Positions 12,691 to 37,345 of a DNA stretch of 64,000 bases are shown in pieces (within the stretch, counting starts at the first letter, position 1; every line of letters begins with the position of its first letter). The position numbers and the translations under genes were made by a program. Under the pieces are notes generated by a model, which did no database searches, was not told the DNA's origin, and saw only the letters and a list, made by a program, of their open reading frames with translations. The DNA is taken from contig JAMPAL010000002.1 in the NCBI GenBank assembly GCA_023667245.1, positions 20,732 through 84,731 on the forward strand, written 5' to 3'. This stretch comes from Anaeroplasma bactoclasticum (GTDB lineage: Bacteria > Bacillota_I > Bacilli_A > ML615J-28 > CAG-313).

Positions 12691-15600
12691 TTACTCAGTT
12701 TCTACTTCTACTTTTGTAATTGTCGCTACACCATTTTCATCGATGGTAATAGTATATTTCGTTTCTGCGGATAAAACTATCGTATATGTCTTTGTTTCTT
12801 CTGCGTATGTACATTCTCTTACTACATACTTGCCATTATTCAAACAAATCAACATAATTTGATTATCAACCACATCAAAATAATTTTTATTTTCACTATC
12901 ATAATAGGTAGTAGCAGATAATTCTTCCACTTGTAAACTTTCATAAGGCTGAACTACTTCTTGTTCTTCTTCAAGTGTTGAACCTTCTTTAGAAACTAAA
13001 TTCAATTTATAATACTTAGTTGATGTTATCTTTTCTTCTTCTGTTGTTCTAACAACATAATAACATACATTCTCAATTGTAAATACTTCAGAATATTCAA
13101 TCTTCTCTTCGCCCTTCATTAAATCAATCGCATACAATGAACCTGCAGAATAGTTTCTGTTATCTGATACAATCACACGTTCAACTGTCAATTGATAGTC
13201 ACCATCAGTGATAGTTTCTACCCTAGTTAGTGCTTGAATTTGATAAGCATACATATTGAATGATGAATGATTCTTCAGTGTAAAATATAATTTATATGTA
13301 TATCCATCAGTTCCTGTTAATAAAACTGTATACAATCCATTTTCATATGTATATGCAGATTTTTCTGTAGAAAGCAATTGTCCTTCTAAATCAAAGGCAC
13401 CGCTTCCTTCTAGGAAATCTAATTTTACATAATCTTCAAGTAAAGCACCATCTACATCATAAGTCTTGTATAGATAGAATACACCAAATTGATTAGTAAA
13501 GGCATTGGCATAGTTTGGACCAAGGAAAGAATAAAGCGTATAATAGATCTCTAAGTATGCATAAGGTAAGAATGAACGAATAAATCTTAAGTTAGTTACT
13601 TCATACTTACTATCAGTTTCACCATTTTCATTTTTTCCTGTAAATTTGGCATTAAAATCAAAACGATAATAACCCACCATGAAATACATTTCATATTCAC
13701 CATCAACCAATTCTCTAATTACTGTACACATATAATTTTGGCCATTGATTTTAACACTACCTGAAACAGCAAATGTATCTGATCCTGATGGTGTAAATGT
13801 TAACTCTTCAGTAGCCGCATACAATTCTGGATCTGAAGTAACTAGTACTGGATAATTATTGCTAGTTTCTGCTTTTCTAGTGAATGTAATCGCATAACCA
13901 TCATTGGCATAATAAGTTTCACCGCCATATGTTTTGACATCATCAAATTCACCAAAAATTTCTTCTACGAATCCATATTCATTTGCATTTGGATCTTCTG
14001 TATCTTGATGATAAATAATAACATCATCACCATTCATCGTATAATAATATCTCGTTTCATTATTGAAAATAGCGAATCCATATTGTGAGAATAAAAGTGA
14101 CTTTAAGTCTTCGGTGTAATAACCACGCGCAGTAAAGTTCTCTTCTATAATGGTTCCATTTTCTGGATTATACTTAAAGATATTGGCACTTGTTCCTTCA
14201 TTGTTTACATAATACAAGATGGAATCTGTGATAATCATATAAGTACCATTTTCAGCTACACCATTTTTATCAACCTTGGTTGCATTACCAATAGAATCTA
14301 ATTTCAATATAGACCAATCTTTTTCATTCAAATATGTGCTAACAACTTCTTTATTTTCAATGAAGAAAGAATTGAATACGGTAGAACCATAGGTATATGT
14401 TCCTAAGTAACCATATAGTGTTACATCTTGATTATCTTCAGTATATTGAATTGTATAATAATCATCTACTGATGAATATGTAGCATTTTCATCAATCACT
14501 ACTTCTACAGCATTGCCTTCTGCATCATATTCAAATGTAAATACTTTAACTTTACCATAACCATCTATTGAAAGATATATGCCTTTTGTACCTTGATTAT
14601 ATATAACAATATAAGTACCATACTCAGGGCCACGTGCTGTAAATGTACGACCAGAAATATCAAAATAACGATAAGATGAATCTAGTGCAATTCGAATTAC
14701 ATTTTCTGAAACAACATTATAGATTCCTGAATAGGTATTACCTTCCATATCTGTATATGTACCGAATAATGAATATCCATCTAAATATAGTGTACCATCA
14801 TTTGATTTGTATGTACCATAATATTCACCATAATATGGGAATACAAATAAATTTTGCGAAAGAGTAATTTGTAAGAATTTAAATGTTTTTTCTTCTGATG
14901 TGAATTGATATACTTGGAATTCTTGTTCAGTTTTTTCATCTAGTTGAGTAACTGTACCTTCAATAGTGTGTTGAACAGCCTCTTCTTTTTTATCTTCGCC
15001 TTCTCCAACCCATTCAGTCACATAATATACATAGATTGCATTACCTTTTCCATCAAATGTTACAAACTCTTGTTTAGAATATGTTCCATCACCCATTACA
15101 ACATATGCACTATACGGTGCATGATTTAAAGCAACAAACGTTTTATTTTCTTCATCAATTTCAAGATAAAGCGAGCCTTGACTAGTTGTAACTGTAGTTA
15201 AACCATCTTTTGTTGCATATGTTCCAACAATTGTATTTTCGCCATTAGAGATAATAGCAAGTCCTGCAACTAATTTTAAAGTTAAGCCATCAGTTGAAGT
15301 ATAGTCTACATCATATGATGTTGTTTCATCACCCACTGTAACAGAATACCAATAATTGATTGGATATTGAGTTGAAGTTGAATCTAATCCAAATACAATT
15401 GATTTCACTGTTTTCAAATCAATGATATCATCGATTACTTCTTTGTCATAAACTTCTTCTGTTACAAATGTATATAATCCTGTAACTGCATCATATTCAT
15501 ATGCACCTTGTAAAATTAATTCATAAGTCTTTGATGATGTATACCCATAAATAGAAGCAATTCCTGGTGCAAAATCATTGATGACAATCAAAGGAGCATA

Positions 15601-17616
15601 GAAAAATCCATCCACATTTTTATAATAATATTCTGCATATCCTGCTGGTTTCTTGACAAATTCATATACAATTTTAGTTACGGTTTCTTCACCTACTATG
15701 ATTTCCTCTGTATGTGAATTGATCATAAATGTATAAGTTTTTCCAGAATCTGTGAAAGTTAGAATCTTTCCACCAAAAACAGAATTACTAACTACATAAT
15801 TGCCAATAGCGATATTCCCATCTTTGTCGGTATATTCAGCCACATGTAATCCATCTAATACAAGTTTTTCGCCCTCTTCACCATTGATAGTAAGGTCTAA
15901 GTCTTCATCGTATACCATATATCCATTTTTGCCATTTACTTTCATAACACGGCAAACACCAAATACAGCACCTTTAGAAGTAGTCAAAATTAATTCTTTT
16001 GTAATTGGATCATATGTATATGCATATGTGCTAGCACCATTACCAGTATTATATATAGCTGTACCAAAACCATTTAAGATTAACTGATAAGCAGCGGTAA
16101 AATAAGTAAGATCGCCATTATAAACTGCAAAGCGAACCAATTCTCCTAAGTTAAATTCCTCATCATTTCTCAGTTGGAAAGCATCCATCTTTACATTCTC
16201 TAAGGTTACAGTACCAATGACAAAAGTTAACGTTTCTCCAGCAAGACTACCATCTGTAAAAGTTGCGGTATAAAAGCCATTTTCATCGATAACATAAGTT
16301 CCGTTTGATAATTTGGTTTGATTATTTTCATCTTTTTCAGAATAAGTAATACCGTTGTAAGCATCAAATAATATTTTAATATTCTCATTTAAACCAGAGC
16401 CTACTTTATAAAGGGATGCCGAATACTCATCTCTTGATGCATCAAAGTATGTAAATGTGCCATTATCAAATAATTTACCTTCAAGATTTTCATAATCATT
16501 GTAGAAAATAAATGAACCATCTTCATAATAGTCACCAACAAAATACACACCCTCACGTGATAAATAAACCTTTTGCGTATCTTTTTCTAAGAAAATATAG
16601 TCATGACCATCAAACATATCCGTATATCCTTTATTCCATATCGCATAAAGGGTTGTATTTTTTTCTGCACCAATTTTTACAACATCAAATGTAACATCTT
16701 CTTTTTTGTTGATTGGTAAGTTTTCAATGTAATGAGCGGGGTACATCACCTCACCATCAGGGCTTGTAGACCATCCTAATAAATAATATCCTTTACACAA
16801 ATAGGTGTTGTCTGGAAGTTCTGTTTTGAGTCCATATATAACATCTTTTGTAACTAATGTATTTTCATATCCTTCTACAGGATAATTGCTATAGAATGAA
16901 ATTGTATATGTATCACGATCATAATATAAGCGCATAACATTATCTGATGCATTTTCAGTAACTTGAATAGAATCAACTGTGTCTTCTTTATTTACTAAGG
17001 TAAAACCAGTATAGGCTGTATTTGCATTCAATAATTTACCAATATAAGCAAAATCAGTAATTTTTTCTAATTCATAACCATTTAAATCTAAATTTTGTTT
17101 ATAAACCTCTATTGTATATTCTGCTTTGTATTGCGCTTTTACTGTGACACCATCAGCAGTCAGTTTGTTTGTTGCATTCAATTCAACACCATTGATAAAC
17201 CAGCCACCAAACACAACACCATTCTTAGAAGGAGTTATGCCACTTAAAAGTTGAGCAATACTTTCTCCTTCTTTACCATAAACTACCGTTGTGTTGCATG
17301 TGCCACCATTGGCATCAATTGTAATTTTACTTAACTGTGTCCATTTTGCGTATACTATTGTATTACCTGTTATGGTAATATTGGTAATCGCATCCCCCGT
17401 AAAATCACTATTTATATACCATCCTTCAAACTCATAACCTTCTTTTGAAGGAGTAGGTAAGGTATAGTCTGTTTTATTCTTTATCGTTACTGTACTAATG
17501 TCAGTACCCCCATTGGTTATAAATTCTAGTTTAAACTTTTTCTTACAACTTGTTGTTGTTAAAAGAAATGCAAAGCATACTAGAACGAATATAATTCTAA
17601 TTTTTGACTTTTTCAC
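12691..17616 (-). CDS. Giant surface lipoprotein (1641 aa): three N-terminal Flg_new (Listeria-Bacteroides) repeats plus about 1350 aa of uncharacterised Tyr/Thr/Gly-rich beta-type sequence
   Basis: Signal peptide with lipobox TTSC. Flg_new signatures are GYEFEGWY, VVFGGWF and GYYLLGWS. The remainder has no motif I recognise and shows recurrent G-T/N-Y ... T-F/Y segments. Confidence 0.85.
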   Translation of the reverse strand: MKKSKIRIIFVLVCFAFLLTTTSCKKKFKLEFITNGGTDISTVTIKNKTDYTLPTPSKEGYEFEGWYINSDFTGDAITNITITGNTIVYAKWTQLSKITIDANGGTCNTTVVYGKEGESIAQLLSGITPSKNGVVFGGWFINGVELNATNKLTADGVTVKAQYKAEYTIEVYKQNLDLNGYELEKITDFAYIGKLLNANTAYTGFTLVNKEDTVDSIQVTENASDNVMRLYYDRDTYTISFYSNYPVEGYENTLVTKDVIYGLKTELPDNTYLCKGYYLLGWSTSPDGEVMYPAHYIENLPINKKEDVTFDVVKIGAEKNTTLYAIWNKGYTDMFDGHDYIFLEKDTQKVYLSREGVYFVGDYYEDGSFIFYNDYENLEGKLFDNGTFTYFDASRDEYSASLYKVGSGLNENIKILFDAYNGITYSEKDENNQTKLSNGTYVIDENGFYTATFTDGSLAGETLTFVIGTVTLENVKMDAFQLRNDEEFNLGELVRFAVYNGDLTYFTAAYQLILNGFGTAIYNTGNGASTYAYTYDPITKELILTTSKGAVFGVCRVMKVNGKNGYMVYDEDLDLTINGEEGEKLVLDGLHVAEYTDKDGNIAIGNYVVSNSVFGGKILTFTDSGKTYTFMINSHTEEIIVGEETVTKIVYEFVKKPAGYAEYYYKNVDGFFYAPLIVINDFAPGIASIYGYTSSKTYELILQGAYEYDAVTGLYTFVTEEVYDKEVIDDIIDLKTVKSIVFGLDSTSTQYPINYWYSVTVGDETTSYDVDYTSTDGLTLKLVAGLAIISNGENTIVGTYATKDGLTTVTTSQGSLYLEIDEENKTFVALNHAPYSAYVVMGDGTYSKQEFVTFDGKGNAIYVYYVTEWVGEGEDKKEEAVQHTIEGTVTQLDEKTEQEFQVYQFTSEEKTFKFLQITLSQNLFVFPYYGEYYGTYKSNDGTLYLDGYSLFGTYTDMEGNTYSGIYNVVSENVIRIALDSSYRYFDISGRTFTARGPEYGTYIVIYNQGTKGIYLSIDGYGKVKVFTFEYDAEGNAVEVVIDENATYSSVDDYYTIQYTEDNQDVTLYGYLGTYTYGSTVFNSFFIENKEVVSTYLNEKDWSILKLDSIGNATKVDKNGVAENGTYMIITDSILYYVNNEGTSANIFKYNPENGTIIEENFTARGYYTEDLKSLLFSQYGFAIFNNETRYYYTMNGDDVIIYHQDTEDPNANEYGFVEEIFGEFDDVKTYGGETYYANDGYAITFTRKAETSNNYPVLVTSDPELYAATEELTFTPSGSDTFAVSGSVKINGQNYMCTVIRELVDGEYEMYFMVGYYRFDFNAKFTGKNENGETDSKYEVTNLRFIRSFLPYAYLEIYYTLYSFLGPNYANAFTNQFGVFYLYKTYDVDGALLEDYVKLDFLEGSGAFDLEGQLLSTEKSAYTYENGLYTVLLTGTDGYTYKLYFTLKNHSSFNMYAYQIQALTRVETITDGDYQLTVERVIVSDNRNYSAGSLYAIDLMKGEEKIEYSEVFTIENVCYYVVRTTEEEKITSTKYYKLNLVSKEGSTLEEEQEVVQPYESLQVEELSATTYYDSENKNYFDVVDNQIMLICLNNGKYVVRECTYAEETKTYTIVLSAETKYTITIDENGVATITKVEVETE

Positions 17617-17649
17617 TTTTTTTCTCCTTATATTTTTTTAAAAGAAACA

Positions 17650-20433
17650 TCAATTTTCATCAGCATAAATAGCTGTTAATGTACAATCTTTATCAATATT
17701 CACTACATCTTCATTTGTATATGTTGTATTGTTTTCGTCTTGCCAATAGGCAACTGTTTTCCCATTTGTAACTGGACTATGAATACCATTTGATGCCTTT
17801 CTATTTTGGAATGTAGCATTAGAAATGGAAATAGAAACTACGTTATTATGTTCATCAAATTCTACTCCCCAAAATATTGGACGATACAATGAATTAAATC
17901 GATTATGCCATTCTCCTAGTATCGATTTTGCATCTGTATAGATGGTTAGATTTTTACATCCATAAAAACAGTGTTGACCAATTACCTTAATATGTTCACG
18001 AAGAATAATCGATTGAAGATTCGTCATTCCTTTGAATGCATAATTGCCAATAGATTCTAAAGCATCATTCAAAGTAACTGATTCAACCAATGCTAACCCT
18101 GAGAATGCATAATCTTCAATTGATTTTAAATTGCTGCCTAATTGTAGCGTTACTACGTTTGAACAATTATAAAATGCAGCTTTTCCAATTTTTTCGACAC
18201 CATCTGGAATTTGAATACCAGTTAAATTAGCACAATAAGCAAATGCATACTCTGAAATTTCTTTTAATTGATTGTTGAATACTATAGTTGTCAATAACTC
18301 ACATTTGTAGAATGCTTTTTCCCCAATCGCTTTGAGGTTATCTGTAAATACAACATTGGTTAAACCATTGCATTTATAAAAGGCATAATCACCTATAGAA
18401 GTTAGTGCTTTACTTAACTTTAATTCTTGAATATAAGAACTATAAAATGCACTACGACCAATAGATTCACAATTGGTTTCACTTAAATCTACTTCTGCTA
18501 ATGAAGAACATTTATAAAAGGCATAATCACCAATTTCTTTTAATGTTCTTGGCATAGAAACTTTTAATAAAGAGGAGCAGCCAAAAAATGTTTTTTCACG
18601 AATTTCTGTTAAATTTCGATTAAATGTAACACTTGCTAATTTGGAGCAGCCATAAAATGCCCCTTTACCGATATAACGACAACTGCTCAATCCTTGAATC
18701 GATGAAAGCGTTTCACAATCAGAGAAAGCATAATCACCAATACCCGCTACACGTTCAGCATCGAATTGTAAGACAATACTACCTAAATTATTTGCGTTAT
18801 AACCGACAACCCAGTTTCCCGCATAAACGATACCATCGTTATCACGAGGAGAATTCCAAAGTTTCGTATTATAAAATGCATATGCACCAATACTGGTTAC
18901 CGTTTCAGGAATCCAAGTGTATGGCGAAAGCGTATTATTGTTCAACTGAGTATTATTACAAAAAGCATATTGACCAATTGTTTTTAGCCCTATTCCTAAT
19001 GATATATTGGTTAGGGCACAGTTGGTAAATGCATAATCACCAATTGAAATAATACTATTATCTAATGTTCTAATCTTCCATAAACTTGTACAATTATAAA
19101 AGGCACGTTCACCAATATATTTAAAAGACGCGGGAAGAACAACTGTTTTCAATTCTGGGCATTGATAGAAAGTCCAATCAGCAACACCTACAATTGTATT
19201 CTTTAATGTTTCTGTATTAATTTCTTCTAATGTTTCAATAAATTTTCGGTTAAAATCGATTAACCAATTATCCGCATAAATAAACTGTTCATCATTATCA
19301 ATCGCTGTTTGATATAATTTCGTATTCAAAAAGGCATTTACTCCAACATTTGTTACTGAATCAGCAATTGTAACGGTTTCAAGTAAACTACAACCTTGAA
19401 ATGCGCCTTGATAAATGGCTTCCACACCTTGAGGAACATTTAACTCAGTCAAGGCAGTACAGCCACTAAATGACTCCATGCCAAGTGATTTTACATTTGT
19501 TTCATCCGAAAAAGAAATTGTTGCAAGTGAAGTACACATATTGAAACAATAATTAGGAATAGCCTTTACATTTTTTCCAATGTATAGTGTTTTCAAAGCT
19601 GTACAAGCGGAAAACGCATATTCATCTATCGTTGCTACGCTATCTGGAATATCCACTTCAAGAAGAGAGGAACAATCTTGAAAGCAAGAAGCGCCTATCT
19701 TTTTAACTTGATTACCTATTTTTACACTCTCTAATTTACGACAATATGCAAATGAAAAATCGGGAAGTTCCGTAATTGAAAAAGGAATTTCAATTGATTT
19801 TAAACTACGACAAGATTGAAAACAAGATGCTCCAATTGATTTTACCGAAGTGGGAATATATACCTTTTCTAACTTGCTACAGTTATAAAATGCATTTTCA
19901 CCGATGGAAATGACATTATTACCGATGGTTACATCTACAATTCTTGTACTTCCTTTAAACGCATTTTTGGCAATTTCAGTAACCGCTTTTCCTCGGTAAA
20001 AATCCTCAATGACAAACGCTCCATTGGCTTTGCCTACTTTTGCAATTTGGTATTCAGTATCGTTATTAATCAGTTTATAAACACAACCATTTTCATAATA
20101 TTTATGGAATAATATTTTTTCTGAATATTCTGAATCTTTTCTTTTTTTACTTCCACTATTGGCTTGGACTGTAATTTCATAATCGCCTACTTCTATTTCA
20201 TCTAAACTATAGGATGTTTTTCGTGTTGTATCTACAATAGTTGTATCCAAATCTACATAATAAAGAGAAACCGTATAAGTTTTAGCTTCATCAACGCTAT
20301 CCCATATTAATCTATTATCTGAATCGACTGTAATATTTTGTGGAACAGCTAATTTCTTTTTATTGATACATCCAGTAAGACTAAAGATAAAAACGATTAA
20401 AAATAATGCATATAAATAATTTATTTTTTTCAT
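17650..20433 (-). CDS. Surface lipoprotein with BspA-type leucine-rich repeats (927 aa)
   Basis: Lipobox LTGC. An N-terminal Fn3-like module (LIWDSVDEAKTYTVSL) is followed by about 30 repeats of the I-x-I-P-x-S-V-x-x-I-G-x-x-A-F-x-x-C-x-x-L type. Confidence 0.9.
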   Translation of the reverse strand: MKKINYLYALFLIVFIFSLTGCINKKKLAVPQNITVDSDNRLIWDSVDEAKTYTVSLYYVDLDTTIVDTTRKTSYSLDEIEVGDYEITVQANSGSKKRKDSEYSEKILFHKYYENGCVYKLINNDTEYQIAKVGKANGAFVIEDFYRGKAVTEIAKNAFKGSTRIVDVTIGNNVISIGENAFYNCSKLEKVYIPTSVKSIGASCFQSCRSLKSIEIPFSITELPDFSFAYCRKLESVKIGNQVKKIGASCFQDCSSLLEVDIPDSVATIDEYAFSACTALKTLYIGKNVKAIPNYCFNMCTSLATISFSDETNVKSLGMESFSGCTALTELNVPQGVEAIYQGAFQGCSLLETVTIADSVTNVGVNAFLNTKLYQTAIDNDEQFIYADNWLIDFNRKFIETLEEINTETLKNTIVGVADWTFYQCPELKTVVLPASFKYIGERAFYNCTSLWKIRTLDNSIISIGDYAFTNCALTNISLGIGLKTIGQYAFCNNTQLNNNTLSPYTWIPETVTSIGAYAFYNTKLWNSPRDNDGIVYAGNWVVGYNANNLGSIVLQFDAERVAGIGDYAFSDCETLSSIQGLSSCRYIGKGAFYGCSKLASVTFNRNLTEIREKTFFGCSSLLKVSMPRTLKEIGDYAFYKCSSLAEVDLSETNCESIGRSAFYSSYIQELKLSKALTSIGDYAFYKCNGLTNVVFTDNLKAIGEKAFYKCELLTTIVFNNQLKEISEYAFAYCANLTGIQIPDGVEKIGKAAFYNCSNVVTLQLGSNLKSIEDYAFSGLALVESVTLNDALESIGNYAFKGMTNLQSIILREHIKVIGQHCFYGCKNLTIYTDAKSILGEWHNRFNSLYRPIFWGVEFDEHNNVVSISISNATFQNRKASNGIHSPVTNGKTVAYWQDENNTTYTNEDVVNIDKDCTLTAIYADEN

Positions 20434-20439
20434 ACGGCA

Positions 20440-26230: not shown

Positions 26231-27232
26231 TTATTTAATTTTATATTTTTTTCTTACTTCTTCCACAATTGACATAACAATTTCATCTGCTGAAACACGT
26301 TCTGCAATAGCTTCAAAGTTGAGTTTAATTCTGTGACGAAGAATTAAACAAGCTAATTCATCAATGTCTTCATAAGCTACATTGTAACGTCCTTTGATTA
26401 AAGCCTTTACTTTTGCAGCCGAGATAAACGCTTGACCTGCTCTTGGACTAGCTCCAAGTCTTAAATATTTTTTGGCTGTTTCACTTGCATATTCACCAGT
26501 TGGGTGAGTTGCAGCAACAATAGTCATTGCATATACCAATACATCATCCGCAACAGGAATACTATTAGCAGTCTCTCTCATTTGTAATAGTTCTTCACTT
26601 GAACATACGGTTTCAGATTGCTCTGCCATTGTAACTTGTGTCAATTGAACGATTTTCATCAAATCTTCTAGTCCGGGATTTGGAACCAAAATCTTGAACA
26701 TAAACCGGTCCATTTGTGCTTCTGGCAGTGGATATGTACCATCTTGTTCAATTGGGTTTTGAGTCGCAAGTACAAAGAATGGTTCATTCAATTGTCTTGT
26801 GACACCCATAACTGTAACTTTATGTTCTTGCATGGCTTCTAATAAAGCAGATTGTGTCTTTGGAGTTGCACGGTTGATTTCATCAGCAAGAATAATATTA
26901 CTAAAAATTGGACCTTCTTTAAATTCAAATGTATTTTTGCCATTTTCATCTTTCATTACCATATTTGTACCTGTTACATCTGTAGGCATTAAATCTGGTG
27001 TAAATTGGATTCTTGAAAAAGGCATACCAAATACTCTTCCAAGTGTTCTAACTAAACGAGTTTTACCTACTCCAGGAACACCTTCTAAAAGAACATTACC
27101 TCCTGCAACCATAGCAATGATGGTTCCTTCCACAACTTCATTTTGACCAATCACGTCAATTGAAACTTGGTCGAAAATTTCTTTAATTTTTATACTAAAA
27201 TCATTTATATTTTTTTCATTTATCATATTCAT
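26231..27232 (-). CDS. MoxR-family AAA+ ATPase
   Basis: Walker A GVPGVGKT, Walker B ILADEINR, and ATQNPIEQDGTYPLPEAQMDRF are classical MoxR (AAA_3) signatures. Confidence 0.95.
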   Translation of the reverse strand: MNMINEKNINDFSIKIKEIFDQVSIDVIGQNEVVEGTIIAMVAGGNVLLEGVPGVGKTRLVRTLGRVFGMPFSRIQFTPDLMPTDVTGTNMVMKDENGKNTFEFKEGPIFSNIILADEINRATPKTQSALLEAMQEHKVTVMGVTRQLNEPFFVLATQNPIEQDGTYPLPEAQMDRFMFKILVPNPGLEDLMKIVQLTQVTMAEQSETVCSSEELLQMRETANSIPVADDVLVYAMTIVAATHPTGEYASETAKKYLRLGASPRAGQAFISAAKVKALIKGRYNVAYEDIDELACLILRHRIKLNFEAIAERVSADEIVMSIVEEVRKKYKIK

Positions 27233-28308: not shown

Positions 28309-28337
28309 ATTTTTTTCCTCTCTTTCTAATCAATTAT

Positions 28338-28364
28338 TCTCTAAAGGGATAATCCCTTTAGAGA
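28338..28364 (-). promoter_or_regulatory. Perfect 12-bp stem / 3-nt loop hairpin in the gap between the giant gene and the next gene (no U-tract)
   Basis: tctctaaaggga (28338-28349) pairs with tccctttagaga (28353-28364). No T-run follows on the minus strand. The RBS-like AGAGAGGAAAAA lies further downstream, before the ATG at 28308. Confidence 0.5.
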
Positions 28365-28396
28365 AAACTGATTCATTTTAATGAAATTATTTATTT

Positions 28397-31300
28397 TTAC
28401 TTTGAACTTTCATTATATTCAAATACAAATTCAGCATCAGTACCTGTCCAATAACCTTTAAAGGTTGAACTAGACACGATTTCATACCAATAACCAGTTA
28501 TATCATATAAAGAAGCAACAACACATACTTTTTGATCACTCGTCCATCCAGCGAATGCACTATCACCAACTGTGATACAATTTTCATAAATAACGATAGA
28601 TTTTATCTTGTTACAATTTTGGAATGTGCCACTACCAATAGATTGAAGTGATTGTGGAAGTGTAATTGTTTCTAAATTTACGCAATTTTTAAATACATTA
28701 CCTGTAGGATTACCACCTGTACTAATTGTACCTAATGTTTCAAGTCCTTCATTTAATACAACAGAAACAAGATTTGCACAATCAAGGAATGCTGAACCAA
28801 AAATATTTTTTACTTTTGAAGGAATTTGAACTGAAGTTAAACCCGTATTTGCGAATGCAGCTGTTTGAATAGTCACAAGTTCATCAGGTAATTTGATTTG
28901 TGTTAAACTTGTACAGTTTTGGAATGCATATGTACCAATTTCAGTGATACCATTAGGCAAATCAATTGTTGAAAGTGATGTGCAATTAGCAAAAGCATAA
29001 TTTGGAATCTTTGTAATATGTTGAGACATTTGTACAGATTCAAGAGCAGTACATCCATTAAACATATTATTATTCAACACATTGCATAAAATAGTTGCAT
29101 TCTTTAATGTTGTGACATCTTTACATATATTTAAGCCCACTCTTGTAACCGTTGAAGGAATAGTAATAGATGTAATTGCGGTTCCAACAAATGCACTATC
29201 ACAAATTGTTTCCAAACCTTCATTTAAGATAACTGAAGTTAGATTTTCACAGTCTTTAAATACTGATCCACTTGATGTTGAAGTTGAACTATACGTACCT
29301 AAACATTCTACACTTCCTGGAATAACAATACTAGTTAAACCTGATAATGTAAATGCATTACTTTCTATTTTTAATAATTTATCGCTTAGTGCAATTGTGC
29401 TCAAATTTTTACAATTCTTAAATGCATTAGATGCAATAGACACAATATTTTCACTATTTTCTATAGTTTGAACCGTACTATTTTCAAACGCGTTACTACC
29501 AACAGCAACTTCTTCTGCGCCCAATACTACAGTATCAATGTTTGTATTCGCAAATAAAGAGGTTGGAAGTGTAGATAAACCAGATCCTAGCACCACCTTA
29601 GTAGCTGCTAATCCATATAGTGCATAATTTGGTAAAGTTGTTAATGTATCAGGTAGTGTTAATGTACCTAATGTGACACCATTTAATGCATAACTTGCAA
29701 TATTTACTCCCTCAGGTAGTATGTAATCACCGCTTAAATTGAATACTGAAACAACAGTAGTTGTTGCGATTTCTACAATAGCCTTATTATCATATACCAT
29801 ATAAGTTGTATTTGCGCCATCAATTGAAAGTGTTGCAAGATTTGGACAAGCATTGAATACGGCTTTACCCAATTTAGCAACCTTACTAGGCACATTGATA
29901 TTTTCTATTCCTGATCCAAAGAATGCATAATCACCCAATTCTGTTACTGTTTCAGGAATAGTAATACTCTTTAATGCTGTACAATTTCTAAATGCATATC
30001 CATAAATGTGTGTAATAGCACCTAAGAATTTTACGTTTTCAAGTGCAGTACAACCGTCAAATACATAACCAGCTGTCGTACTAGAACCAATCTTAGTTGT
30101 TTTGTTTGGAATCTCAACTGTTTTTAAAGATACGCAATTTTGGAACGTGTAGTTTGGTAGTATTGCAATATTTGGTAATACTGCAGTAGCTAAGTTTGCA
30201 CAATCTTTCAATGCAGCCGTTCCCATTGTAGTTACTTTAGACAAATCAATTGATTCAAGTCCACTATTTTGGAAGGCATAACTACCAATTGAAGTACAGG
30301 TACTTGGAAGAGTAATACTCTTTAATGATGTACAATTTTTAAATACATAAGCACCAATATAAGTTGCCTTACCTAAAATTTCAACTTCTGCTAGTGATGT
30401 ACAACCATCAAATGTATATGCACTTGCAGAATAAGTAGTGCCGCCAATTTTAACCAAAGAAGCAGGTAATGTAATTTTTTCTAGTCCTGTACAATTTTGG
30501 AACGCATATGTACCAAGCGTTGTTAATTTTGCAGGAAGAGTTACATTAGTTAAATTTTCACAATTTTGGAATGCATAATTACCAATGGTTGTATTGTCAT
30601 CTGCAATAATAACGTCAGTTAAATTTGAACATCCTTTAAACATATATGTACCAAATGATTTTAGTGTGCCTTCAATATTAGCAGAAACAAGAGATTGGCA
30701 ATCGGCGAATGCATAGTTGCCAAGGGTTGTTACTGTTGATGGCACAACTACTTTTTCAAGTCCACTATTTTGGAAAGCATATGCTGCAATTGTAGTTAAA
30801 GCGGTAGGGAATGTAAGTGATCGAAGCGATGTACAACCTCTAAATGCATATTGACCAATAATTTCTACTTTATCACCTAAGAAAGTTACACTTTCGAGTG
30901 CAGTACAACCATCAAATGCATATGAAGATGCGGTAGCTGATTTACTAGCACCAATATACGTAATACCTTCTGGAATTTCAATTGATTCTAATGAAGTGCA
31001 TCCTTGGAATGTATAATTTCCAAATGTAGTCAATGTAGAAGGTAACTTCACTGTTTTTAGACTTGTACAACCTTTAAATGCATATCCACCAAGAATTGTT
31101 AAGCCTTCTGGAAGATTTACTGTAGTTAATGCTGTACAATTGGTAAACAATTGATTGGCAAATGTTTTAATTGTAGTTGGAAGTGTAGCCTCCGTTAATG
31201 AATAACACTCTGTAAATACATAAGTACCAAACTGAGTAACGCCTTCTGGAATTGTAACTGTTTCAAGTCCTGAACTTCTAAATGCATAATTCATAATCTT

Positions 31301-34300
31301 CTTTAAACTATTTGGGAATGTAATGGATTTCAATGATGAAGTAAACACAAAAGCATATTGATCAATGGATTGTAAATTATTAGGAAGTGTAATACTTTCT
31401 AGCGATTCACAAGCCGCAAATGCGTATTCTGGAATGGTTTGAATACCATTTGGAAGAACGATATTTTTAAGACTCTTACAAGCATTAAATACATTCTTAC
31501 CTAGTGTATCTAATACACATCCATTTGCAAATTCTATTTCAACTAAGTTATAACAATTATTAAATGCATAATCACCAATAGTTTTCATTGTTTTTGGAAC
31601 AATTACTTTGGTAATATTGGTTTGACCAGCAAATGCATAAGTTCCAATGGTAGTAACACCTTCTGGGATGGCAAATACACCATCCATTCTACCGAATAAG
31701 AATTGAATTGCTGTACCATCAACATTTAAAATGATGGGTTGTGTTTCTGAAACTCTAAAGTTTTCACTATGTTCTGCAACAACAATGGTTTGAATACCAG
31801 AGCATTTCACAAATAGATTACTAATTGAAGTTACTGCTTCTGATAAATAAACATGAGTTAAATTGCTATCACCTTCAAATAAATGTACCATTGTACCAGA
31901 ACCAAGTGTAATTTTATTATAAACACCAGCTTCATCAACACCACAATATGGGAAAGCAAATGATGTAAGACTACTACAATTTCCAAATGCTCTTTGACCA
32001 ATCATTTGCAAACTTGAGCCTTCTTCTGTATCCGTACCTTCAAAAGTAACTGTTACTAATGACTTACAATTTTGGAATGCATAATTATCAATTTTTTTGA
32101 TAGATTGAGGGAAAGAAATTGATGTAATTGGAGTATAACAGAATGCATTTGCTCCAATTGTTTCTAGTTGCGATCCTTCCGCAAATGTGACTGATGCTAG
32201 CAGTATATCATTATAAAATGCCCATGTTCCAATGGATGTAACTGAAGCTGGGATAACGACAGATTGGATAAATTTACAACCATAAAAAGCATTATCTGAT
32301 ATAGTTTGAAGTCCTTCTGGAAGATTTAACGATGTAATACCTGAATAAGCAAAGGCATATTTTCCTAACACCAAATCAGGAGCCGTTTCAGCAAATGTTA
32401 AATCTGTTAAACCAGAACATTGATAGAATGCATTGTCACCGATTTTCTTTGTAGTAGATGGAATATATACTGTTTTAATTTTAGACATACCCGCAAATGC
32501 ATATTTACCTATTGTTGTTAATCTTTCAGGTAATATAATCGTTTCTAGATTATCACACATTGCAAATGTACCATAATAATATGTATATTCATCCCCTGAT
32601 GATACAGTTCCATCTCCCAGTTCAAGAGGAACGGTTCCACCTTCTTCAAATGTTATTTTATTAAGGGAACTACAATAATAGAAAGTTTTTGTAGGCAAGA
32701 ACTCTACTGTATTAGGAATCACTACTTCACGAAGCAAATCACATCTATAAAATGCTTGTGTACCAATATTTTTTAATCCATTAGGTAACTCAAGTTGAGA
32801 TAAGTTTGTACATTCATAAAATGCAAAGCTACCAATTGATAACTCGGTATCTATCCCATTGCTAAATGTCAATTCTTCGATTGATTTATTTTGATAGAAG
32901 GAACGATTAGCAAGTGCAATGACATTACTTGGTAAGTCAATTTTTCCACCTTTATTTTGAGGACAAACAAGTAATTCATAACCCAAAATTTCTCCTTCTT
33001 TATTTTTCACTACACGATATAAAATACCATCTATAACTTTATAATTTTCATTTTCACCAACTAAAACAAATTCAGTTAAACTCTTACAGAAATCAAATGA
33101 ACGAATTCTATCTTCTTTATCATCAGTAAGGGTACTTCCTGATTCTACAATCACTTCAAGCGATGTAGGTAAAGTAATGCGAACCGCACTAGAGCAACTT
33201 TGGAATGCTTCAGCTCCAATGGATTTAACGTTACTCGGAATAACGATTTCAGGAATAGCCTCACATGCTTTAAACGCCGCATCTAAGATTTGAGTTAGTC
33301 TTTCAGGAAGTTGAAGATTCACTAAAGCTCTACAACTATAAAATGCCATAGAACCAATAACAAGTTCTTCAGTTCCACCTTCTTCAAAAATAACTTCTTT
33401 TAAATTTGTACAATTTGCAAATGCACTTGTACCAATCAATTTAACGTTCTTACTAATTGTAATCGATGTAATACCTGTTTTATTTTCAAATACTTTAGCG
33501 CCAATTTCTACTACTGTTTCTGGTACTACATAATTACCTTCTCTTTCAGTAGGATAATACACAATTTTCGTTACATCTTTGTCAAATAAAACGCCATCAA
33601 TTGATGCATAATTGGTATTACCTTCTTCTACTACTACTTTAGCCAATACTTTGGAACCAAATACACCTGTAATATCAAATGCTGCTACTTCTTTTGCTAT
33701 AAATAATTCCTTCACATAATATGTTGGAGATATGGAAACAGAAGTAGTTGTCGTACCAAATGCTGCATACTCAAAATTAATATTTGGACTTACTGCATAT
33801 ACATTGACTTTAGTCAGTTTTGATGTACCACCAAAAGCATTTTTTTCCATTACAGTTAGGTTTGCTGGAAGTGTAACTTCTGTCAAACTTGCATTGTTGC
33901 ATCCATAGAATGCACTATTTTTGATTGTTAACGCACTATCTTCAGCACCACCTAAGAAATTTATTTTTTCAAGGGCAGTACATGATTTAAATGCATTCTT
34001 TTCAATTAGAGTCACTTGACCAGAAATATTGATCTCTATTAATCCTTTACAAGAATCAAATGCACTTTCTCTAATTGTTTGAATACCTACTGGAGTCGTA
34101 TATGTTGGACCTTTTGCACGCGGGAAAAAGATAATTTCTGTTTTATCAACATCCATCAGTACACCATCCATAGATGAATATACTGCATTTTCATATGTAC
34201 CAGTAATATTTACAGCAACTAATTTTGAACAAGAATTAAAAATATCTGCGTTAAATGATGTCAATCTAGCTGGTAAATTAATAACCTCAAGAGAAGTATT

Positions 34301-37300
34301 GCTTGCAAATACCTTTGAACCAAGCATTAACTCTTGCACCGCTGCTCCTTCTTCTGGATTTAAGAATGTAACAGTTGTTAATTTTGAACAAGATTGGAAT
34401 GCATTTTCATCAATTTTTGTAACGGTTGCTGGAATAATAATTTCTGTAATTTTAGAACAGCTCTTGAATGCATTAATCGGAATGGTTGTTACAATACTAG
34501 GAATAGTATAAGTACCACCTTTTGTGTTATATGGGAAATATTTAATTTCGTAGCCATTATATTCGTTTCGATAAATTAACACGCCATCAACTGAAAAATA
34601 ACGGATATCTTCTTCAAGCAGTCCCTCAACTGGATATACATTTACTGCTTGTAAATTTGTACAAGATTGGAAACATGAACCAGTACCATTAGGACCTTGA
34701 GATCCAACTTCTACATTTAGAATTGAGGCTGGAATATTCACAGTAATTAAGTTAGAACAAGATTGGAATGCACTTGCTTCAACAGTTGTTACTGGTAGAC
34801 CTAAGTATGTTGTAGGGATAGTTATCGTTGATACATAGCCAATACCAGGACCTTTAGAAACAGAATACGCTTTGCCATCATTAATCAAATCAAATGTAAA
34901 CACATCTACCCAACCAGCATATAATGTAACTTCTCCATAATCTCTCCAATTTTTAAGAGATTTACCTTGTTCATTTGTATATCTTTCACCTTGAGCATTC
35001 AACTCTGAATACCAACCAATAAATGCTTTTAAATTACTTTCAGTTTTAGGAATTGGTAAAGTAAATGGTGAGCCAAATTGTGTAGTTACTTGATCAATTT
35101 CACCACTACCATAAGTAGCATAATCTAATTTTGCAACATATTCTTTTCCGTTCCAAGAAGCAAAAATTTCAATATCTGTATCCGCTTCAAACGTTTCTGC
35201 GGTAAATAAATTACCAGAATTTACAGCACCATTTTCAATATCATACCAACCTATGAAGTTATATCCTTCAAATGTTGGAATAGGTAATGATGGAATTTTG
35301 TCTCCTTTAACAAAATATAAATTTTCAAGTGTTTCACCACCGCTTGTATTAAGAATTAGTGCATATACTTCAACAGCATATGGAAAAAATTCTCCATAAT
35401 TTCCCTCGTTATCAACAGCGGTGACATAAATGGTATGTTTACCTGATGTTATTTTATAATCTACTTGAGTATCATTTTCAACAAAAATAATTTCGCTATC
35501 ATCCACTTTAACAGCATATTTTCCAACAAATGGAACCGAGTTCCAGCTGATTACACCATTTTTATATTCAATGGTGTTGACTCCATCCTTACTAATAAAT
35601 ACATCAGGACTATACAATGAATTATTTTTTTCTTCCGTCGCAACAGCTTGAACACTAATTACAAATTCATCAAGTGTTTCAATTTCTTCAAGTGTTAATG
35701 TATAAGCATTTGTTGAAGATGTAAATAACTTATCTCCAATTTTAATATTATATCCAATAGCCCCTTCAACTGCATCCCATAATACTTCACAACCTATTAC
35801 TTTAATATTTGTTGGTGTGAATAATGCTGTTTTATTGTAATCGTATTTTGTTGTTTTCGCATAACATCCTTGAGCAACTGGAGTAATAGTAAAACTCAAA
35901 TTACCATAGAAACTATCAATTGCAAGCATATTGTTGGTCGTTGTATAAGTATATGTTTGACCATTTGGAGTAAGGATAGTTACTTTATAACTAGTTGCAT
36001 TTTCAACTACATCCCACATTAATGTTTGAGTCGCTGCATCAACTGTAACATTAGTTACTTCACTTAATTCTCTATACAACATTACTTCTTTAGAAGTAGA
36101 TGACATATATCCATTTGCTTTTGCAGTAACGATAAATTTAATACCTTTATCTGGCATCAAACATTCGCTAAAGTCATATTCATTTACATCGCCTAAATCA
36201 AGCATTTTATGCTGATGGCCACTTAAACCACACTCAACCGTTATTAAATAATTGGTTGCATTTTCCACTTTATTCCAAGTTAATTTAAATCCATCAATTT
36301 CAAATTTACAAACTTGCGTTAATTTTTTATTGCAATAGTATGCTTTTCCTGTATAATCGCCTGTAGTTACTTCTACTACATAATTTCCAGCACTTAATGT
36401 ATTAAAATCAAATTCAACATAATTGGCATTGACCCTCTTTGTAAATACAGGTTCTTCAGCAAGATCATCTGCATATCGTATATTTACTGCATATTGCTTA
36501 TTTACACCTTTATTATCCCAAGCAATTTGTCTTTCATTGACAGATACTAGCGGTGCAGAATTGGCATAGACTGCATAAAGAACTATGTCTTGTTTGATTT
36601 CCATCATTGGTAAGAATTCATATGTAAGCTTAGAGCCATCTTCATAATCACTTATCCACCAACCAATAAATGTTTTCCCCTCTACATCAACTGTTGGAAG
36701 TGTATATAATGTGTTATTGAATGTTTCAACACTTTCAATATTTACCCCCTCTATACCAGTATCAAAACTTACTGTATATTCATAATCATATTTTTCTTTC
36801 GCAACAAATCTTGCATAGATTGTTGTATCACTTGTAATGACTTCCTTTTCGAAATCAAATACAGTCAAATATGAACTATCTTTATACCAATTTACAAATA
36901 AATGATTTTCTTTTTCAGGATCTTGAGGTTTTTCACATTTTTGACCATTTTTTATCGTAAGCGTACGATTAGAACCTGCACTAAAAGTCACAGTATAATT
37001 GACATCACGATAAAAGGTATATGAATATCCTTTATAAGAAAAGCTCATTATGTTTTCTTTATAATCTACATTTACACTTTTTTTATCATTTTCAAATGTA
37101 AAATCAAGTGTAGAACCATCAAATGTATAAGAACCATTTAAAGTTTCAACGAGATTATTCAGAGTGAACTTTCCTTCATCAAGTTCCAATGAATAAGTTT
37201 CTTCATCTAGATAACTATAATACTTGCCAACTTCGCCTTGATCAACGAATTTTTTCTTTTTACAATTACACCCTGCAAAAAGGGTTGTAAAGATAAGAAA

Positions 37301-37345
37301 GGCAACTAACATAAAAATAATTTTAGCCCTAAATTTCGCCTTCAT
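28397..37345 (-). CDS. Giant surface lipoprotein (2982 aa): Flg_new repeats, five Fn3-like modules, then about 2100 aa of BspA-type leucine-rich repeats
   Basis: Lipobox FAGC. Flg_new signatures are HLFVNWY, KTFIGWW, YNFIGWY and KAFIGWY. Fn3-like modules carry the x-W-D/N-x-V-x-x-A-x-x-Y motif (LTWNKVENATNYLITV, LMWDVVENATSYKVTI, VLWDAVEGAIGYNIKI ...). Dozens of YAF(Q/K/A)(N/G)C(T/S)xL LRR units follow. There is no LPXTG motif. Confidence 0.9.
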   Translation of the reverse strand: MKAKFRAKIIFMLVAFLIFTTLFAGCNCKKKKFVDQGEVGKYYSYLDEETYSLELDEGKFTLNNLVETLNGSYTFDGSTLDFTFENDKKSVNVDYKENIMSFSYKGYSYTFYRDVNYTVTFSAGSNRTLTIKNGQKCEKPQDPEKENHLFVNWYKDSSYLTVFDFEKEVITSDTTIYARFVAKEKYDYEYTVSFDTGIEGVNIESVETFNNTLYTLPTVDVEGKTFIGWWISDYEDGSKLTYEFLPMMEIKQDIVLYAVYANSAPLVSVNERQIAWDNKGVNKQYAVNIRYADDLAEEPVFTKRVNANYVEFDFNTLSAGNYVVEVTTGDYTGKAYYCNKKLTQVCKFEIDGFKLTWNKVENATNYLITVECGLSGHQHKMLDLGDVNEYDFSECLMPDKGIKFIVTAKANGYMSSTSKEVMLYRELSEVTNVTVDAATQTLMWDVVENATSYKVTILTPNGQTYTYTTTNNMLAIDSFYGNLSFTITPVAQGCYAKTTKYDYNKTALFTPTNIKVIGCEVLWDAVEGAIGYNIKIGDKLFTSSTNAYTLTLEEIETLDEFVISVQAVATEEKNNSLYSPDVFISKDGVNTIEYKNGVISWNSVPFVGKYAVKVDDSEIIFVENDTQVDYKITSGKHTIYVTAVDNEGNYGEFFPYAVEVYALILNTSGGETLENLYFVKGDKIPSLPIPTFEGYNFIGWYDIENGAVNSGNLFTAETFEADTDIEIFASWNGKEYVAKLDYATYGSGEIDQVTTQFGSPFTLPIPKTESNLKAFIGWYSELNAQGERYTNEQGKSLKNWRDYGEVTLYAGWVDVFTFDLINDGKAYSVSKGPGIGYVSTITIPTTYLGLPVTTVEASAFQSCSNLITVNIPASILNVEVGSQGPNGTGSCFQSCTNLQAVNVYPVEGLLEEDIRYFSVDGVLIYRNEYNGYEIKYFPYNTKGGTYTIPSIVTTIPINAFKSCSKITEIIIPATVTKIDENAFQSCSKLTTVTFLNPEEGAAVQELMLGSKVFASNTSLEVINLPARLTSFNADIFNSCSKLVAVNITGTYENAVYSSMDGVLMDVDKTEIIFFPRAKGPTYTTPVGIQTIRESAFDSCKGLIEINISGQVTLIEKNAFKSCTALEKINFLGGAEDSALTIKNSAFYGCNNASLTEVTLPANLTVMEKNAFGGTSKLTKVNVYAVSPNINFEYAAFGTTTTSVSISPTYYVKELFIAKEVAAFDITGVFGSKVLAKVVVEEGNTNYASIDGVLFDKDVTKIVYYPTEREGNYVVPETVVEIGAKVFENKTGITSITISKNVKLIGTSAFANCTNLKEVIFEEGGTEELVIGSMAFYSCRALVNLQLPERLTQILDAAFKACEAIPEIVIPSNVKSIGAEAFQSCSSAVRITLPTSLEVIVESGSTLTDDKEDRIRSFDFCKSLTEFVLVGENENYKVIDGILYRVVKNKEGEILGYELLVCPQNKGGKIDLPSNVIALANRSFYQNKSIEELTFSNGIDTELSIGSFAFYECTNLSQLELPNGLKNIGTQAFYRCDLLREVVIPNTVEFLPTKTFYYCSSLNKITFEEGGTVPLELGDGTVSSGDEYTYYYGTFAMCDNLETIILPERLTTIGKYAFAGMSKIKTVYIPSTTKKIGDNAFYQCSGLTDLTFAETAPDLVLGKYAFAYSGITSLNLPEGLQTISDNAFYGCKFIQSVVIPASVTSIGTWAFYNDILLASVTFAEGSQLETIGANAFCYTPITSISFPQSIKKIDNYAFQNCKSLVTVTFEGTDTEEGSSLQMIGQRAFGNCSSLTSFAFPYCGVDEAGVYNKITLGSGTMVHLFEGDSNLTHVYLSEAVTSISNLFVKCSGIQTIVVAEHSENFRVSETQPIILNVDGTAIQFLFGRMDGVFAIPEGVTTIGTYAFAGQTNITKVIVPKTMKTIGDYAFNNCYNLVEIEFANGCVLDTLGKNVFNACKSLKNIVLPNGIQTIPEYAFAACESLESITLPNNLQSIDQYAFVFTSSLKSITFPNSLKKIMNYAFRSSGLETVTIPEGVTQFGTYVFTECYSLTEATLPTTIKTFANQLFTNCTALTTVNLPEGLTILGGYAFKGCTSLKTVKLPSTLTTFGNYTFQGCTSLESIEIPEGITYIGASKSATASSYAFDGCTALESVTFLGDKVEIIGQYAFRGCTSLRSLTFPTALTTIAAYAFQNSGLEKVVVPSTVTTLGNYAFADCQSLVSANIEGTLKSFGTYMFKGCSNLTDVIIADDNTTIGNYAFQNCENLTNVTLPAKLTTLGTYAFQNCTGLEKITLPASLVKIGGTTYSASAYTFDGCTSLAEVEILGKATYIGAYVFKNCTSLKSITLPSTCTSIGSYAFQNSGLESIDLSKVTTMGTAALKDCANLATAVLPNIAILPNYTFQNCVSLKTVEIPNKTTKIGSSTTAGYVFDGCTALENVKFLGAITHIYGYAFRNCTALKSITIPETVTELGDYAFFGSGIENINVPSKVAKLGKAVFNACPNLATLSIDGANTTYMVYDNKAIVEIATTTVVSVFNLSGDYILPEGVNIASYALNGVTLGTLTLPDTLTTLPNYALYGLAATKVVLGSGLSTLPTSLFANTNIDTVVLGAEEVAVGSNAFENSTVQTIENSENIVSIASNAFKNCKNLSTIALSDKLLKIESNAFTLSGLTSIVIPGSVECLGTYSSTSTSSGSVFKDCENLTSVILNEGLETICDSAFVGTAITSITIPSTVTRVGLNICKDVTTLKNATILCNVLNNNMFNGCTALESVQMSQHITKIPNYAFANCTSLSTIDLPNGITEIGTYAFQNCTSLTQIKLPDELVTIQTAAFANTGLTSVQIPSKVKNIFGSAFLDCANLVSVVLNEGLETLGTISTGGNPTGNVFKNCVNLETITLPQSLQSIGSGTFQNCNKIKSIVIYENCITVGDSAFAGWTSDQKVCVVASLYDITGYWYEIVSSSTFKGYWTGTDAEFVFEYNESSK

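Follow-up and report, generated by a model that had tools for sequence, protein, structure and literature searches.

Clusters in which a MoxR ATPase is encoded beside a DUF58 protein and VWA proteins belong to the most widespread of the conserved gene clusters in bacteria for which there is neither an agreed function nor any identified client, and what such a module may act upon is the question raised by the locus described here. It lies in a stretch of 64,000 nucleotides, hereafter the window, of contig JAMPAL010000002.1 from the Anaeroplasma bactoclasticum assembly GCA_023667245.1 (positions 20,732 to 84,731 of the forward strand). Eight minus-strand open reading frames (ORFs) fill positions 37345..12691 of the window, a block of ~25 kb, and encode in order a giant leucine-rich repeat (LRR) lipoprotein, a membrane protein of 350 residues (TM350), a MoxR AAA+ ATPase, a DUF58 protein, a BatA-like membrane protein (BatA651), a double-VWA membrane protein (VWA946), and two further lipoproteins (LRR927 and Lipo1641). 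The intergenic gaps from gene 1 to gene 8 are 88, 23, 89, −4, 9, 6, and 33 nt. An earlier reading of these letters, the original prediction, had described eight packed minus-strand genes, and our ORF map reproduced its coordinates and gaps exactly. It had further argued for a functional unit rather than a chance adjacency, a view that we find well supported because the gene order is kept in relatives while the outer flanks differ. We propose that the eight genes would make up one envelope-spanning unit in a clade of uncultured animal-gut Clostridia. That the core resembling the Bat operons shares a pathway or complex with the LRR/B-repeat lipoproteins appears rather probable to us, while any particular contact map between the proteins is held with much lower confidence.

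Conservation of the block among relatives

Homologues of VWA946 number more than 900 among uncultured Clostridia, with ~50% identity. Relatives were sampled with an alignment of 22 VWA946 homologues, and the best 80 of 369 genome matches were retained with 10-kb flanks. These 80 loci come from species-representative genomes and were chosen by VWA946 similarity (44–95% identity), leaving out 289 weaker matches; all their ORFs were annotated against the window proteins, and a neighbour was counted only where the contig reaches far enough. The common order is giant LRR protein, TM350, MoxR, DUF58, BatA-like protein, double-VWA protein, ~930-aa LRR protein, and ~1650-aa lipoprotein. The giant LRR gene occupies its canonical position in 49 of 50 assessable loci and TM350 in all 56, directly upstream of the MoxR position; the corresponding counts are 62/66 for MoxR, 64/68 for DUF58, 73/76 for the BatA-like gene, 73/77 for LRR927, and 68/70 for Lipo1641. 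The neighbours are present in 94–100% of the assessable loci, the LRR/Flg_new genes that flank the module included. When these 80 species-level relatives were checked for orthologous modules with unrelated neighbours, the linkage survived. Among the full-length Lipo1641 orthologues, even the one that diverges most (29% identity) has kept its place in the operon, and precomputed Pfam calls agree. An independent metagenome scan seeded on the TM350 alignment recovered the block once more, in the same clade only and in no more distant lineages; the giant LRR gene precedes TM350 in most of these loci and, when complete, encodes 2558–3103 aa.

The surroundings of the block behave differently from the block. 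In 58 loci, the genes that follow Lipo1641 sort into ~30 unrelated groups, and upstream of the block the genes of different lineages are unrelated as well; because the flanks turn over while the block stays, its preservation is due to selection on the block rather than to residual synteny. The median gaps from TM350 to Lipo1641 in the relatives are 37, 19, −4, 9, 26, and 69 nt, the 26-nt value being that between VWA946 and LRR927, which often overlap. The surface proteins are single orthologues with conserved lengths and behave as machine parts, unlike variable adhesins.

According to the record labels, the carriers are nearly all uncultured Clostridia, Clostridiales, and Eubacteriales from human, Hadza, rabbit, ruminant, and chicken gut, among them Candidatus Scatosoma, Candidatus Neoclostridium, CAG:314, and "Christensenella sp. 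UBA4636". Both Candidatus genera were looked up in the NCBI taxonomy, which places them in Bacillota, Clostridia incertae sedis. Three records with near-identical or related block copies, L001 (JAMPDF010000002.1), L002, and L050 in our numbering of loci, bear the titles 'Prevotella sp.', 'uncultured Mollicutes bacterium', and 'uncultured Acidiphilium sp.'; these titles of metagenome-assembled genomes (MAGs) are probably taxonomic mislabels. Numerous metagenome contigs break off at TM350: six end ~70–100 nt after its gene (L092, L098, L100, L105, L109, and L116) and five start just before it (L094, L111, L126, L137, and L159). Assemblies have likely been tangled by the repeats of the giant LRR gene on its upstream side and by the strong conservation of the MoxR gene on its downstream side, and the block is therefore probably under-represented in MAGs.

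Several variants of the block were observed. In 23 of 58 loci (~40%), Lipo1641 is followed by a ninth gene, within 11–30 nt in the tightest cases (L003:15265-17498, L004:20604-22862, L008:20673-22790, L024:20730-22826, and 19 other loci). Four examples that were scanned encode Peptidase_S8 subtilases with an inserted PA domain, which are regarded as being of the cell-envelope-protease type. Neither the window nor L001 or L002 has the subtilase gene at this position, and no homologue is found anywhere in the 64-kb window. At L027, the MoxR–DUF58 pair has moved to the 3′ end of the same block, after the last gene. Two assemblies carry two block copies, CANQRP01 (L048 and L068) and CAKQKI01 (L027 and L063). 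The CAKQKI01 copies, found in one MAG, are diverged: their membrane and surface genes are 29–45% identical, their MoxR genes 99%, and their DUF58 genes 77%. The MoxR identity could stem from gene conversion, recent copying of the ATPase, or a binning artefact; unless it is the latter, it suggests that one ATPase type can serve two diverged surface sets.

Cytoplasmic, membrane, and surface proteins of the block

The MoxR protein (gene 3, 26231..27232, minus strand, 333 aa) matches AAA_3 (E 2.4e-62) and AAA_lid_2 (E 3.1e-16) in Pfam, which makes it a MoxR-proper ATPase, and its Walker A (GVPGVGKT) and Walker B (ILADEINR) motifs are intact. It also matches bpMoxR (PF20030; E 3.9e-11), with 42.8 bits against 209 bits for AAA_3. 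The DUF58 protein (gene 4, 25242..26141, minus strand, 299 aa; DUF58 E 9.5e-33) carries a DTSAS motif of the DxSxS type and is presumed to be the MoxR adaptor. Its gene lies 89 nt downstream of MoxR in the window and at a median of 19 nt in 63 relatives, and it overlaps gene 5 by 4 nt, a spacing of −4 nt that is also the median in 64 relatives. MoxR is the most conserved gene of the block, with a median identity of 75% across relatives, and DUF58 reaches 67%, as against 31–47% across species for the remaining block genes.

Three membrane proteins accompany this pair. TM350 (gene 2, 27256..28308, minus strand, 350 aa) has three hydrophobic TM (transmembrane) segments and is composed of a TM hairpin, a ~55-aa segment (D-x-LGLEER-x-x-TM ... 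QReDA), the third TM segment, a B-repeat domain, an acidic low-complexity linker, and a conserved C-terminal module, NQVIDG-x-TYYG. The LGLEER segment is predicted to be cytoplasmic and the InlB-B-repeat domain, which is Flg_new_2-like, to be external. The window protein has a sub-threshold match to Flg_new_2 only (19.9 bits, cut-off 23.6), and 20 of 25 orthologues match this family, with a best E of 2.4e-8. A weak N-terminal similarity to DUF4175 (PF13779; TIGR02302-like membrane proteins), a family that may be linked to MoxR operons and for which a literature search found no paper on such a link, is detected below cut-off at positions ~13–98 in 4 of the 25 orthologues (best E 1.2e-4), with no match in TM350 of the window itself.

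TM350 also has relatives in a different setting. Full-length homologues (24–35% identity) that keep the LGLEER-x-x-TM motif occur in phage-like contexts devoid of MoxR, VWA, and LRR genes. Five such loci are metagenomic (L114, L104, L113, L120, and L158). The homologue of L114 (10001-11071) follows a tail protein (phrog_1887) and a YadA-head-like fibre and precedes a phage 'peptidase', an RRXRR protein, a primase, and TnpB. Further homologues are found on 19 IMG/VR contigs of 8–202 kb (L163–L181), most of them of 78–202 kb, and a tblastn search of GenBank phages gave no match.

BatA651 (gene 5, 23290..25245, minus strand, 651 aa) matches BatA_N (PF07584) with 33.3 bits (cut-off 25.9) and VWA_2 with 38.3 bits. 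It consists of an N-terminal double-TM unit (6–24 and 58–76), a VWA domain with a DASAS metal-ion-dependent adhesion site (MIDAS) motif of the DxSxS type, a long region, and a C-terminal TM segment (623–641); the VWA domain and the long region are predicted to be external. Conservation in this protein peaks in TM1 and the cytoplasmic loop (0.81 and 0.79, compared with 0.57 overall).

VWA946 (gene 6, 20440..23280, minus strand, 946 aa) has TM segments in a 2+1 arrangement, two VWA stretches, and a weak GATase1_like match in Pfam. Its AF2 model (pLDDT 82) starts with two N-terminal TM helices, VWA1, a β-sandwich, an α/β domain, and VWA2, and continues with an α/β region, the site of the GATase1-like match, a β domain, the C-terminal TM helix, and an amphipathic helix. 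Across 22 sequences, the two MIDAS signatures do not vary, that of VWA2 being DRSGS, and the protein ends in an invariant cytoplasmic tail, AVRKFKFKWPHE (RKFKFKWPHE). Conservation is 0.82 in the cytoplasmic loop and 0.81 in TM3, compared with 0.62 overall. The best Foldseek matches are to the double-VWA matrix protein PTMP1 and, among single domains, to Bacteroides BatB (3ibs and 4jdu), with 25–26% identity and a TMt of 0.68–0.73 for 3ibs. The TM1–TM2 loop and the C-terminal tail of VWA946 are both rich in Lys and Arg, which by the positive-inside rule places the VWA domains, as far as the sequence allows one to judge, outside the membrane. Topology work on the BatA-type Borrelia protein BB0173, an inner-membrane protein, is consistent with such an external VWA placement (PMC5700661). 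In all three membrane proteins of the block, the cytoplasmic loop and the TM segments are the best conserved parts.

The three large proteins are lipoproteins with lipoboxes LFAGC in gene 1, LTGC in LRR927, and TTSC in Lipo1641. The product of gene 1 (28397..37345, minus strand, 2982 aa) matches LRR_5 in 22 stretches (E = 0) and Flg_new (E 1.7e-21). Flg_new/InlB B-repeats are located at residues ~117–248 and 661–797 and are followed by ~2000 aa of continuous BspA-type LRR_5 (~930–2965). LRR927 (gene 7, 17650..20433, minus strand, 927 aa) is made up of one Fn3-like module and ~700 aa of LRR_5 (6 stretches, E 5.3e-179), and its length is kept at ~920–1050 aa in orthologues. NCBIfam matches of LRR927 to Gli349 (87.6 bits, cut-off 1750) and HupY (216 bits, cut-off 1250) were rejected as generic LRR similarity. 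The Fn3-like motif W-[DN]-x-V-x-x-A-x-x-Y is present three times in gene 1 (357, 444, and 523) and once in LRR927 (44); it is a motif only, with no match to Pfam fn3 in the block proteins. The LRR regions of the two proteins align extensively. The original prediction had pointed to modules shared across the block, and these are borne out by the B-repeats of genes 1, 2, and 8 and by the Fn3-like motif and the aligning LRR of genes 1 and 7. Its domain calls agree with Pfam, that of Flg_new in TM350 holding at the level of the family.

Lipo1641 (gene 8, 12691..17616, minus strand, 1641 aa, GTG start) carries two Flg_new repeats at its N-terminus only. Beyond these repeats come ~1300 aa of all-β structure, for which searches of Pfam, NCBIfam, and PDB sequences retrieved no family. 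Residues 442–1641 yield a confident all-β AF2 model (pLDDT 87), for which Foldseek returned no specific structural relative (TM 0.06–0.11, r.m.s. deviation 30–45 Å); the CPSF160/DDB1 propeller scaffolds and Rhs/teneurin shells among the results are generic long-β matches in the same TM range and were discarded as fold assignments. A hairpin motif, L-x-L-D-G-x-G-x-A-x-Y, recurs at residues 512, 585, 852, 943, 1015, 1104, and 1174. A regular-expression search showed its spacing to be irregular, with no internal period, and no match to a known repeat family was obtained. In the region ~510–1180, Tyr and Gly are invariant across orthologues at many positions.

Transcription signals and genomic surroundings

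A candidate σ70-type promoter for the cluster is located on the minus strand at 37906..37935 (GTGGCA-18-TG-TATAAT, 10/12 consensus match, extended −10), in the 882-nt spacer between the terminator of the MatE gene and gene 1; the assignment is a consensus match only. The terminator-like hairpin of the MatE gene is at 38088-38059. At the other end, the cluster is closed by an intrinsic terminator at 12623..12658 (minus strand; 16-bp stem followed by UUUUUU, dG −22.7 kcal/mol, z −4.95), and a promoter-like TTGATT...TATAAT for the LuxE/LuxC genes comes after it. The original prediction had recognized this terminator as the only convincing one of the cluster. The terminator is real, and a second strong hairpin had been missed at 28373-28328, in the 88-nt spacer 3′ of gene 1 (28328..28373, minus strand; 21 bp, dG −26.3 kcal/mol, z −4.99, no U-tract). 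Both hairpins were found by folding; a consensus terminator scan missed them because of AT-rich stems or the lack of a U-tract. Between genes 2 and 8, the consensus scan and folding revealed no intergenic terminator in the window.

The core stem of the hairpin after gene 1 is kept in the close relatives L001, L002, and L082. The junction of genes 1 and 2 is the longest of the block, with 60–375 nt in relatives, and the spacer is long and strongly structured in nearly all of them, some having canonical U-tails. Since a conserved strong hairpin and a long spacer part gene 1 from the other seven, the operon is probably not one simple transcript. The hairpin is possibly a leaky terminator, an attenuator, or a 3′-end stabilizer that uncouples expression of the giant LRR protein from that of the seven others.

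None of the genes flanking the block in the window is related to it. Upstream are a MatE transporter gene and an Ogt methyltransferase gene; downstream are LuxE/LuxC-type acyl-protein synthetase and reductase genes, a phosphorylase-superfamily gene, and others. The LuxE-type synthetase (E 1.9e-47) and the LuxC-type acyl-CoA reductase (E 3.9e-59) make up a pair that adjoins the block on its downstream side (10048-12439, minus strand); the pair is surprising in the genome of anaerobic gut Clostridia and presumably has a fatty-aldehyde or lipid role that has nothing to do with luminescence. The GC content of the window is ~31% throughout; a 1216-aa ORF (45084-48734, minus strand) with no Pfam match is located in its most AT-rich part (46001-48000, GC 0.22 compared with ~0.31).

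A proposed envelope-spanning unit, its alternatives, and known systems

The strongest constraint of the block is at the inner face of the membrane. In the mechanism that we propose, a hexamer of the MoxR AAA+ ATPase and its DUF58 adaptor would engage the cytoplasmic loops and tails of TM350, BatA651, and VWA946, whose external VWA/MIDAS and B-repeat domains would bind, hold, or mature the three lipoproteins, and ATP hydrolysis would serve to assemble, mature, or switch a surface LRR array. The hairpin after gene 1 may let the giant LRR protein be made in amounts different from those of the machinery, as for a cargo or adhesin, and the subtilase, where it is co-encoded, may process the products by proteolytic maturation. 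What the sequences show are the genes and domains present, the topology signals, the fixed order with its tight spacing, and the conservation pattern; the contacts between the proteins, the choice of partners, and the role of ATP hydrolysis are what we infer from this arrangement. The original prediction had offered, likewise from the letters, that the AAA+/MIDAS machinery may mature, load with metal, or anchor a multi-megadalton LRR complex.

A more specific form of this mechanism, which we put forward as tentative and on balance unlikely, is an inside-out adhesion switch, in which MoxR–DUF58 would pull on or remodel the cytoplasmic loops and tails and so alter the state of the external MIDAS/VWA domains and the display or ligand affinity of a megadalton LRR array. 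By analogy, and with the same reserve, it might be a functional analogue of integrin activation via cytoplasmic tails. Were such a switch real, the lipoproteins would be the first defined extracellular clients of Bat-type MoxR–DUF58–VWA modules, and phage-borne homologues of TM350 would find an explanation, for example in tampering with a receptor complex.

Several observations weigh against a single envelope unit, and the same observations give weight to an account in which a generic Bat-like module for envelope homeostasis or stress sits beside ordinary LRR/B-repeat adhesins and has been co-inherited with them in one clade. The strong, conserved hairpin and the long spacer that follow gene 1 allow for at least two expression units. 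LRR partners are lacking from the Bat-like modules of Bacteroides, Leptospira, and Borrelia (PMC3557215, PMC5700661). In some lineages, the block has no MoxR: DUF58 directly follows TM350 in three metagenome loci (L144, L146, and L154) with no MoxR visible in the 21-kb locus, L064 has no MoxR–DUF58 within the visible 2 kb downstream, and MoxR or MoxR–DUF58 is likewise lacking at the canonical position in the genomes of L022 and L029. Because of these lineages, the ATPase need not be encoded in cis. For the single unit, contact between the block proteins, their co-transcription, and their surface exposure are predictions drawn from the genes. An account by separate functions is nonetheless rather unlikely in our view. 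The flanks turn over and the eight-gene block does not; its order is kept down to 44% identity for VWA946 and 29% for Lipo1641; LRR927 comes a median of 26 nt after the double-VWA gene, with frequent overlap; the block has been duplicated and rearranged as a unit; and the lengths of LRR927 and Lipo1641 are conserved, unlike those of free-evolving adhesins.

Alternatively, the MoxR, DUF58, and VWA proteins could act once, in the export or folding of the lipoproteins (metal loading or prevention of aggregation), and stay outside the final surface structure. Such a transient chaperone would fit the description of MoxR–VWA pairs as maturation factors for dedicated complexes (PMC3893208, PMC8430577), the apparently partly independent expression of the giant LRR gene, and the subtilase co-encoded in 23/58 relatives. 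With MoxR and DUF58 in the cytoplasm and the VWA domains predicted to be external, however, folding on the outside would still need stable membrane partners, and three membrane proteins with conserved external domains exceed the needs of a simple chaperone. We give this explanation a low probability, similar to that of separate functions, and the present data do not separate it from the envelope-unit reading.

A role in conflict or in relations with phages seems very unlikely. The block could be a membrane version of the MoxR-vWA-β-propeller ternary system or a phage-receptor complex under arms-race pressure, as might be suggested by the bpMoxR match of MoxR (E 3.9e-11), by the multi-propeller scaffolds among the top Foldseek matches of the Lipo1641 model, and by the occurrence of TM350 homologues on 19 large IMG/VR viral contigs and at 5 phage-like metagenome loci, beside tail genes. 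But MoxR scores 209 bits with AAA_3 against 43 with bpMoxR, and the VWA proteins are membrane-bound and carry no effector domains, so that we rejected assignment to the ternary system. As a defence system the block was rejected as well: PADLOC reported nothing of substance, and Lipo1641 has no confident propeller match, TM-scores below 0.11 justifying no such assignment. The eight proteins of the window contain no effector, nuclease, or protease domains, and the gene set is stable rather than diversified. Least plausible of all is a surface motility or adhesion-cycling machine akin to the Mycoplasma gliding legs driven by an internal ATPase, an idea prompted by the association of giant surface proteins with a cytoplasmic ATPase and membrane connectors and by the partial Gli349 match of LRR927, since this match (87.6 bits against 1750) is far below cut-off and confined to LRR-like stretches, no other gliding components are present, and MoxR ATPases are not known to drive motility.

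For an envelope-spanning unit, the interest lies in what the fixed operon supplies, namely three length-conserved lipoproteins and an extra membrane protein as candidate clients for a Bat-like module. Humans, ruminants, rabbits, and poultry are the hosts of the carriers, which are common uncultured Clostridia of gut and rumen. The ~25 kb of the block are a large investment for what are probably small genomes; the block is therefore likely central to the interaction of these organisms with their surroundings.

The closest known relatives of the core are the Bat operons (B. fragilis batI/II/A-E, Borrelia bb0170-bb0176, and Leptospira batABD), in which a MoxR-proper ATPase comes first, DUF58 second, and membrane VWA proteins thereafter. 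The likeness extends to the N-terminal double-TM domain of BatA and to the VWA fold, which among bacterial structures is nearest to the BatB structures 3ibs and 4jdu. The Bat-like character described in the original prediction thus stands as regards MoxR, DUF58, the BatA-type protein, and a second VWA protein, and fails as regards the rest of the Bat set: no Pfam or NCBIfam match to BatC (TPR), BatD, or BatE (SH3/TPR) was found in the eight proteins or in the adjacent genes examined. Because these three are lacking, the module is a Bat-like core and not a Bat operon. It also differs from Bat operons in its second VWA protein, a 946-aa double-VWA protein with extra domains in place of the ~340-aa BatB, in the 3-TM B-repeat protein and the three dedicated LRR/B-repeat lipoproteins of the operon, and in its host, which belongs to Bacillota (Clostridia). 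In the organisms where Bat modules have been studied, their function is unresolved (PMC3557215, PMC5700661), and a role in aerotolerance or oxidative stress is disputed for Leptospira (PMC3557215).

Links between such modules and adhesins have precedents. BB0172 of Borrelia, a Bat-like VWA protein, is a reported integrin-binding adhesin (PMC5700661), and for the Bifidobacterium PFNA cluster (pkb2, fn3, aaa-atp, duf58, plus tgm) the ATPase has been proposed to chaperone the secreted FN3 protein (PMC8430577). The PFNA cluster resembles the block in that MoxR and DUF58 belong to a cluster of fixed order that also encodes a large secreted protein of the adhesin type. Unlike it, the block has membrane VWA proteins, and its surface proteins are LRR_5/InlB-B-repeat lipoproteins; the eight proteins gave no Pkinase or transglutaminase match that would correspond to the pkb2 Ser/Thr kinase or to tgm. 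The statement of the original prediction that no adhesin-type locus with such a module had been described is therefore too broad, and holds for the combination of a Bat-like core with LRR_5 or B-repeat proteins, as no published MoxR/DUF58/VWA cluster with either was found in the searchable literature, in which subscription journals are partly covered. What is new here is thus a Bat-like core with dedicated LRR cargo and without BatC, BatD, and BatE, links of MoxR–DUF58 with adhesins being already known in general.

The surface proteins themselves recall BspA-type and InlB proteins, with LRR_5 dominating genes 1 and 7, B-repeats in genes 1, 2, and 8, and lipoprotein signal peptides. Known BspA-like proteins stand alone and are often multi-copy and variable, whereas the block has two single, length-conserved LRR orthologues in an ATPase/VWA operon.

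MoxR–VWA remodelling pairs other than RavA–ViaA include NorQ–NorD, CbbQ–CbbO, and CoxD–CoxE. More generally, MoxR ATPases and their VWA partners are remodelling or maturation factors for dedicated complexes (PMC8430577, PMC3893208). As in RavA–ViaA, a MoxR-family AAA+ protein is encoded in the block beside MIDAS-bearing VWA proteins, and an ATP-driven remodeller with an adaptor acting on a dedicated target would be expected (PMC3893208). In such pairs, the VWA protein and the target are in the cytoplasm or at the inner face of the membrane, whereas the block has MIDAS domains with a predicted external position and lipoproteins as candidate targets.

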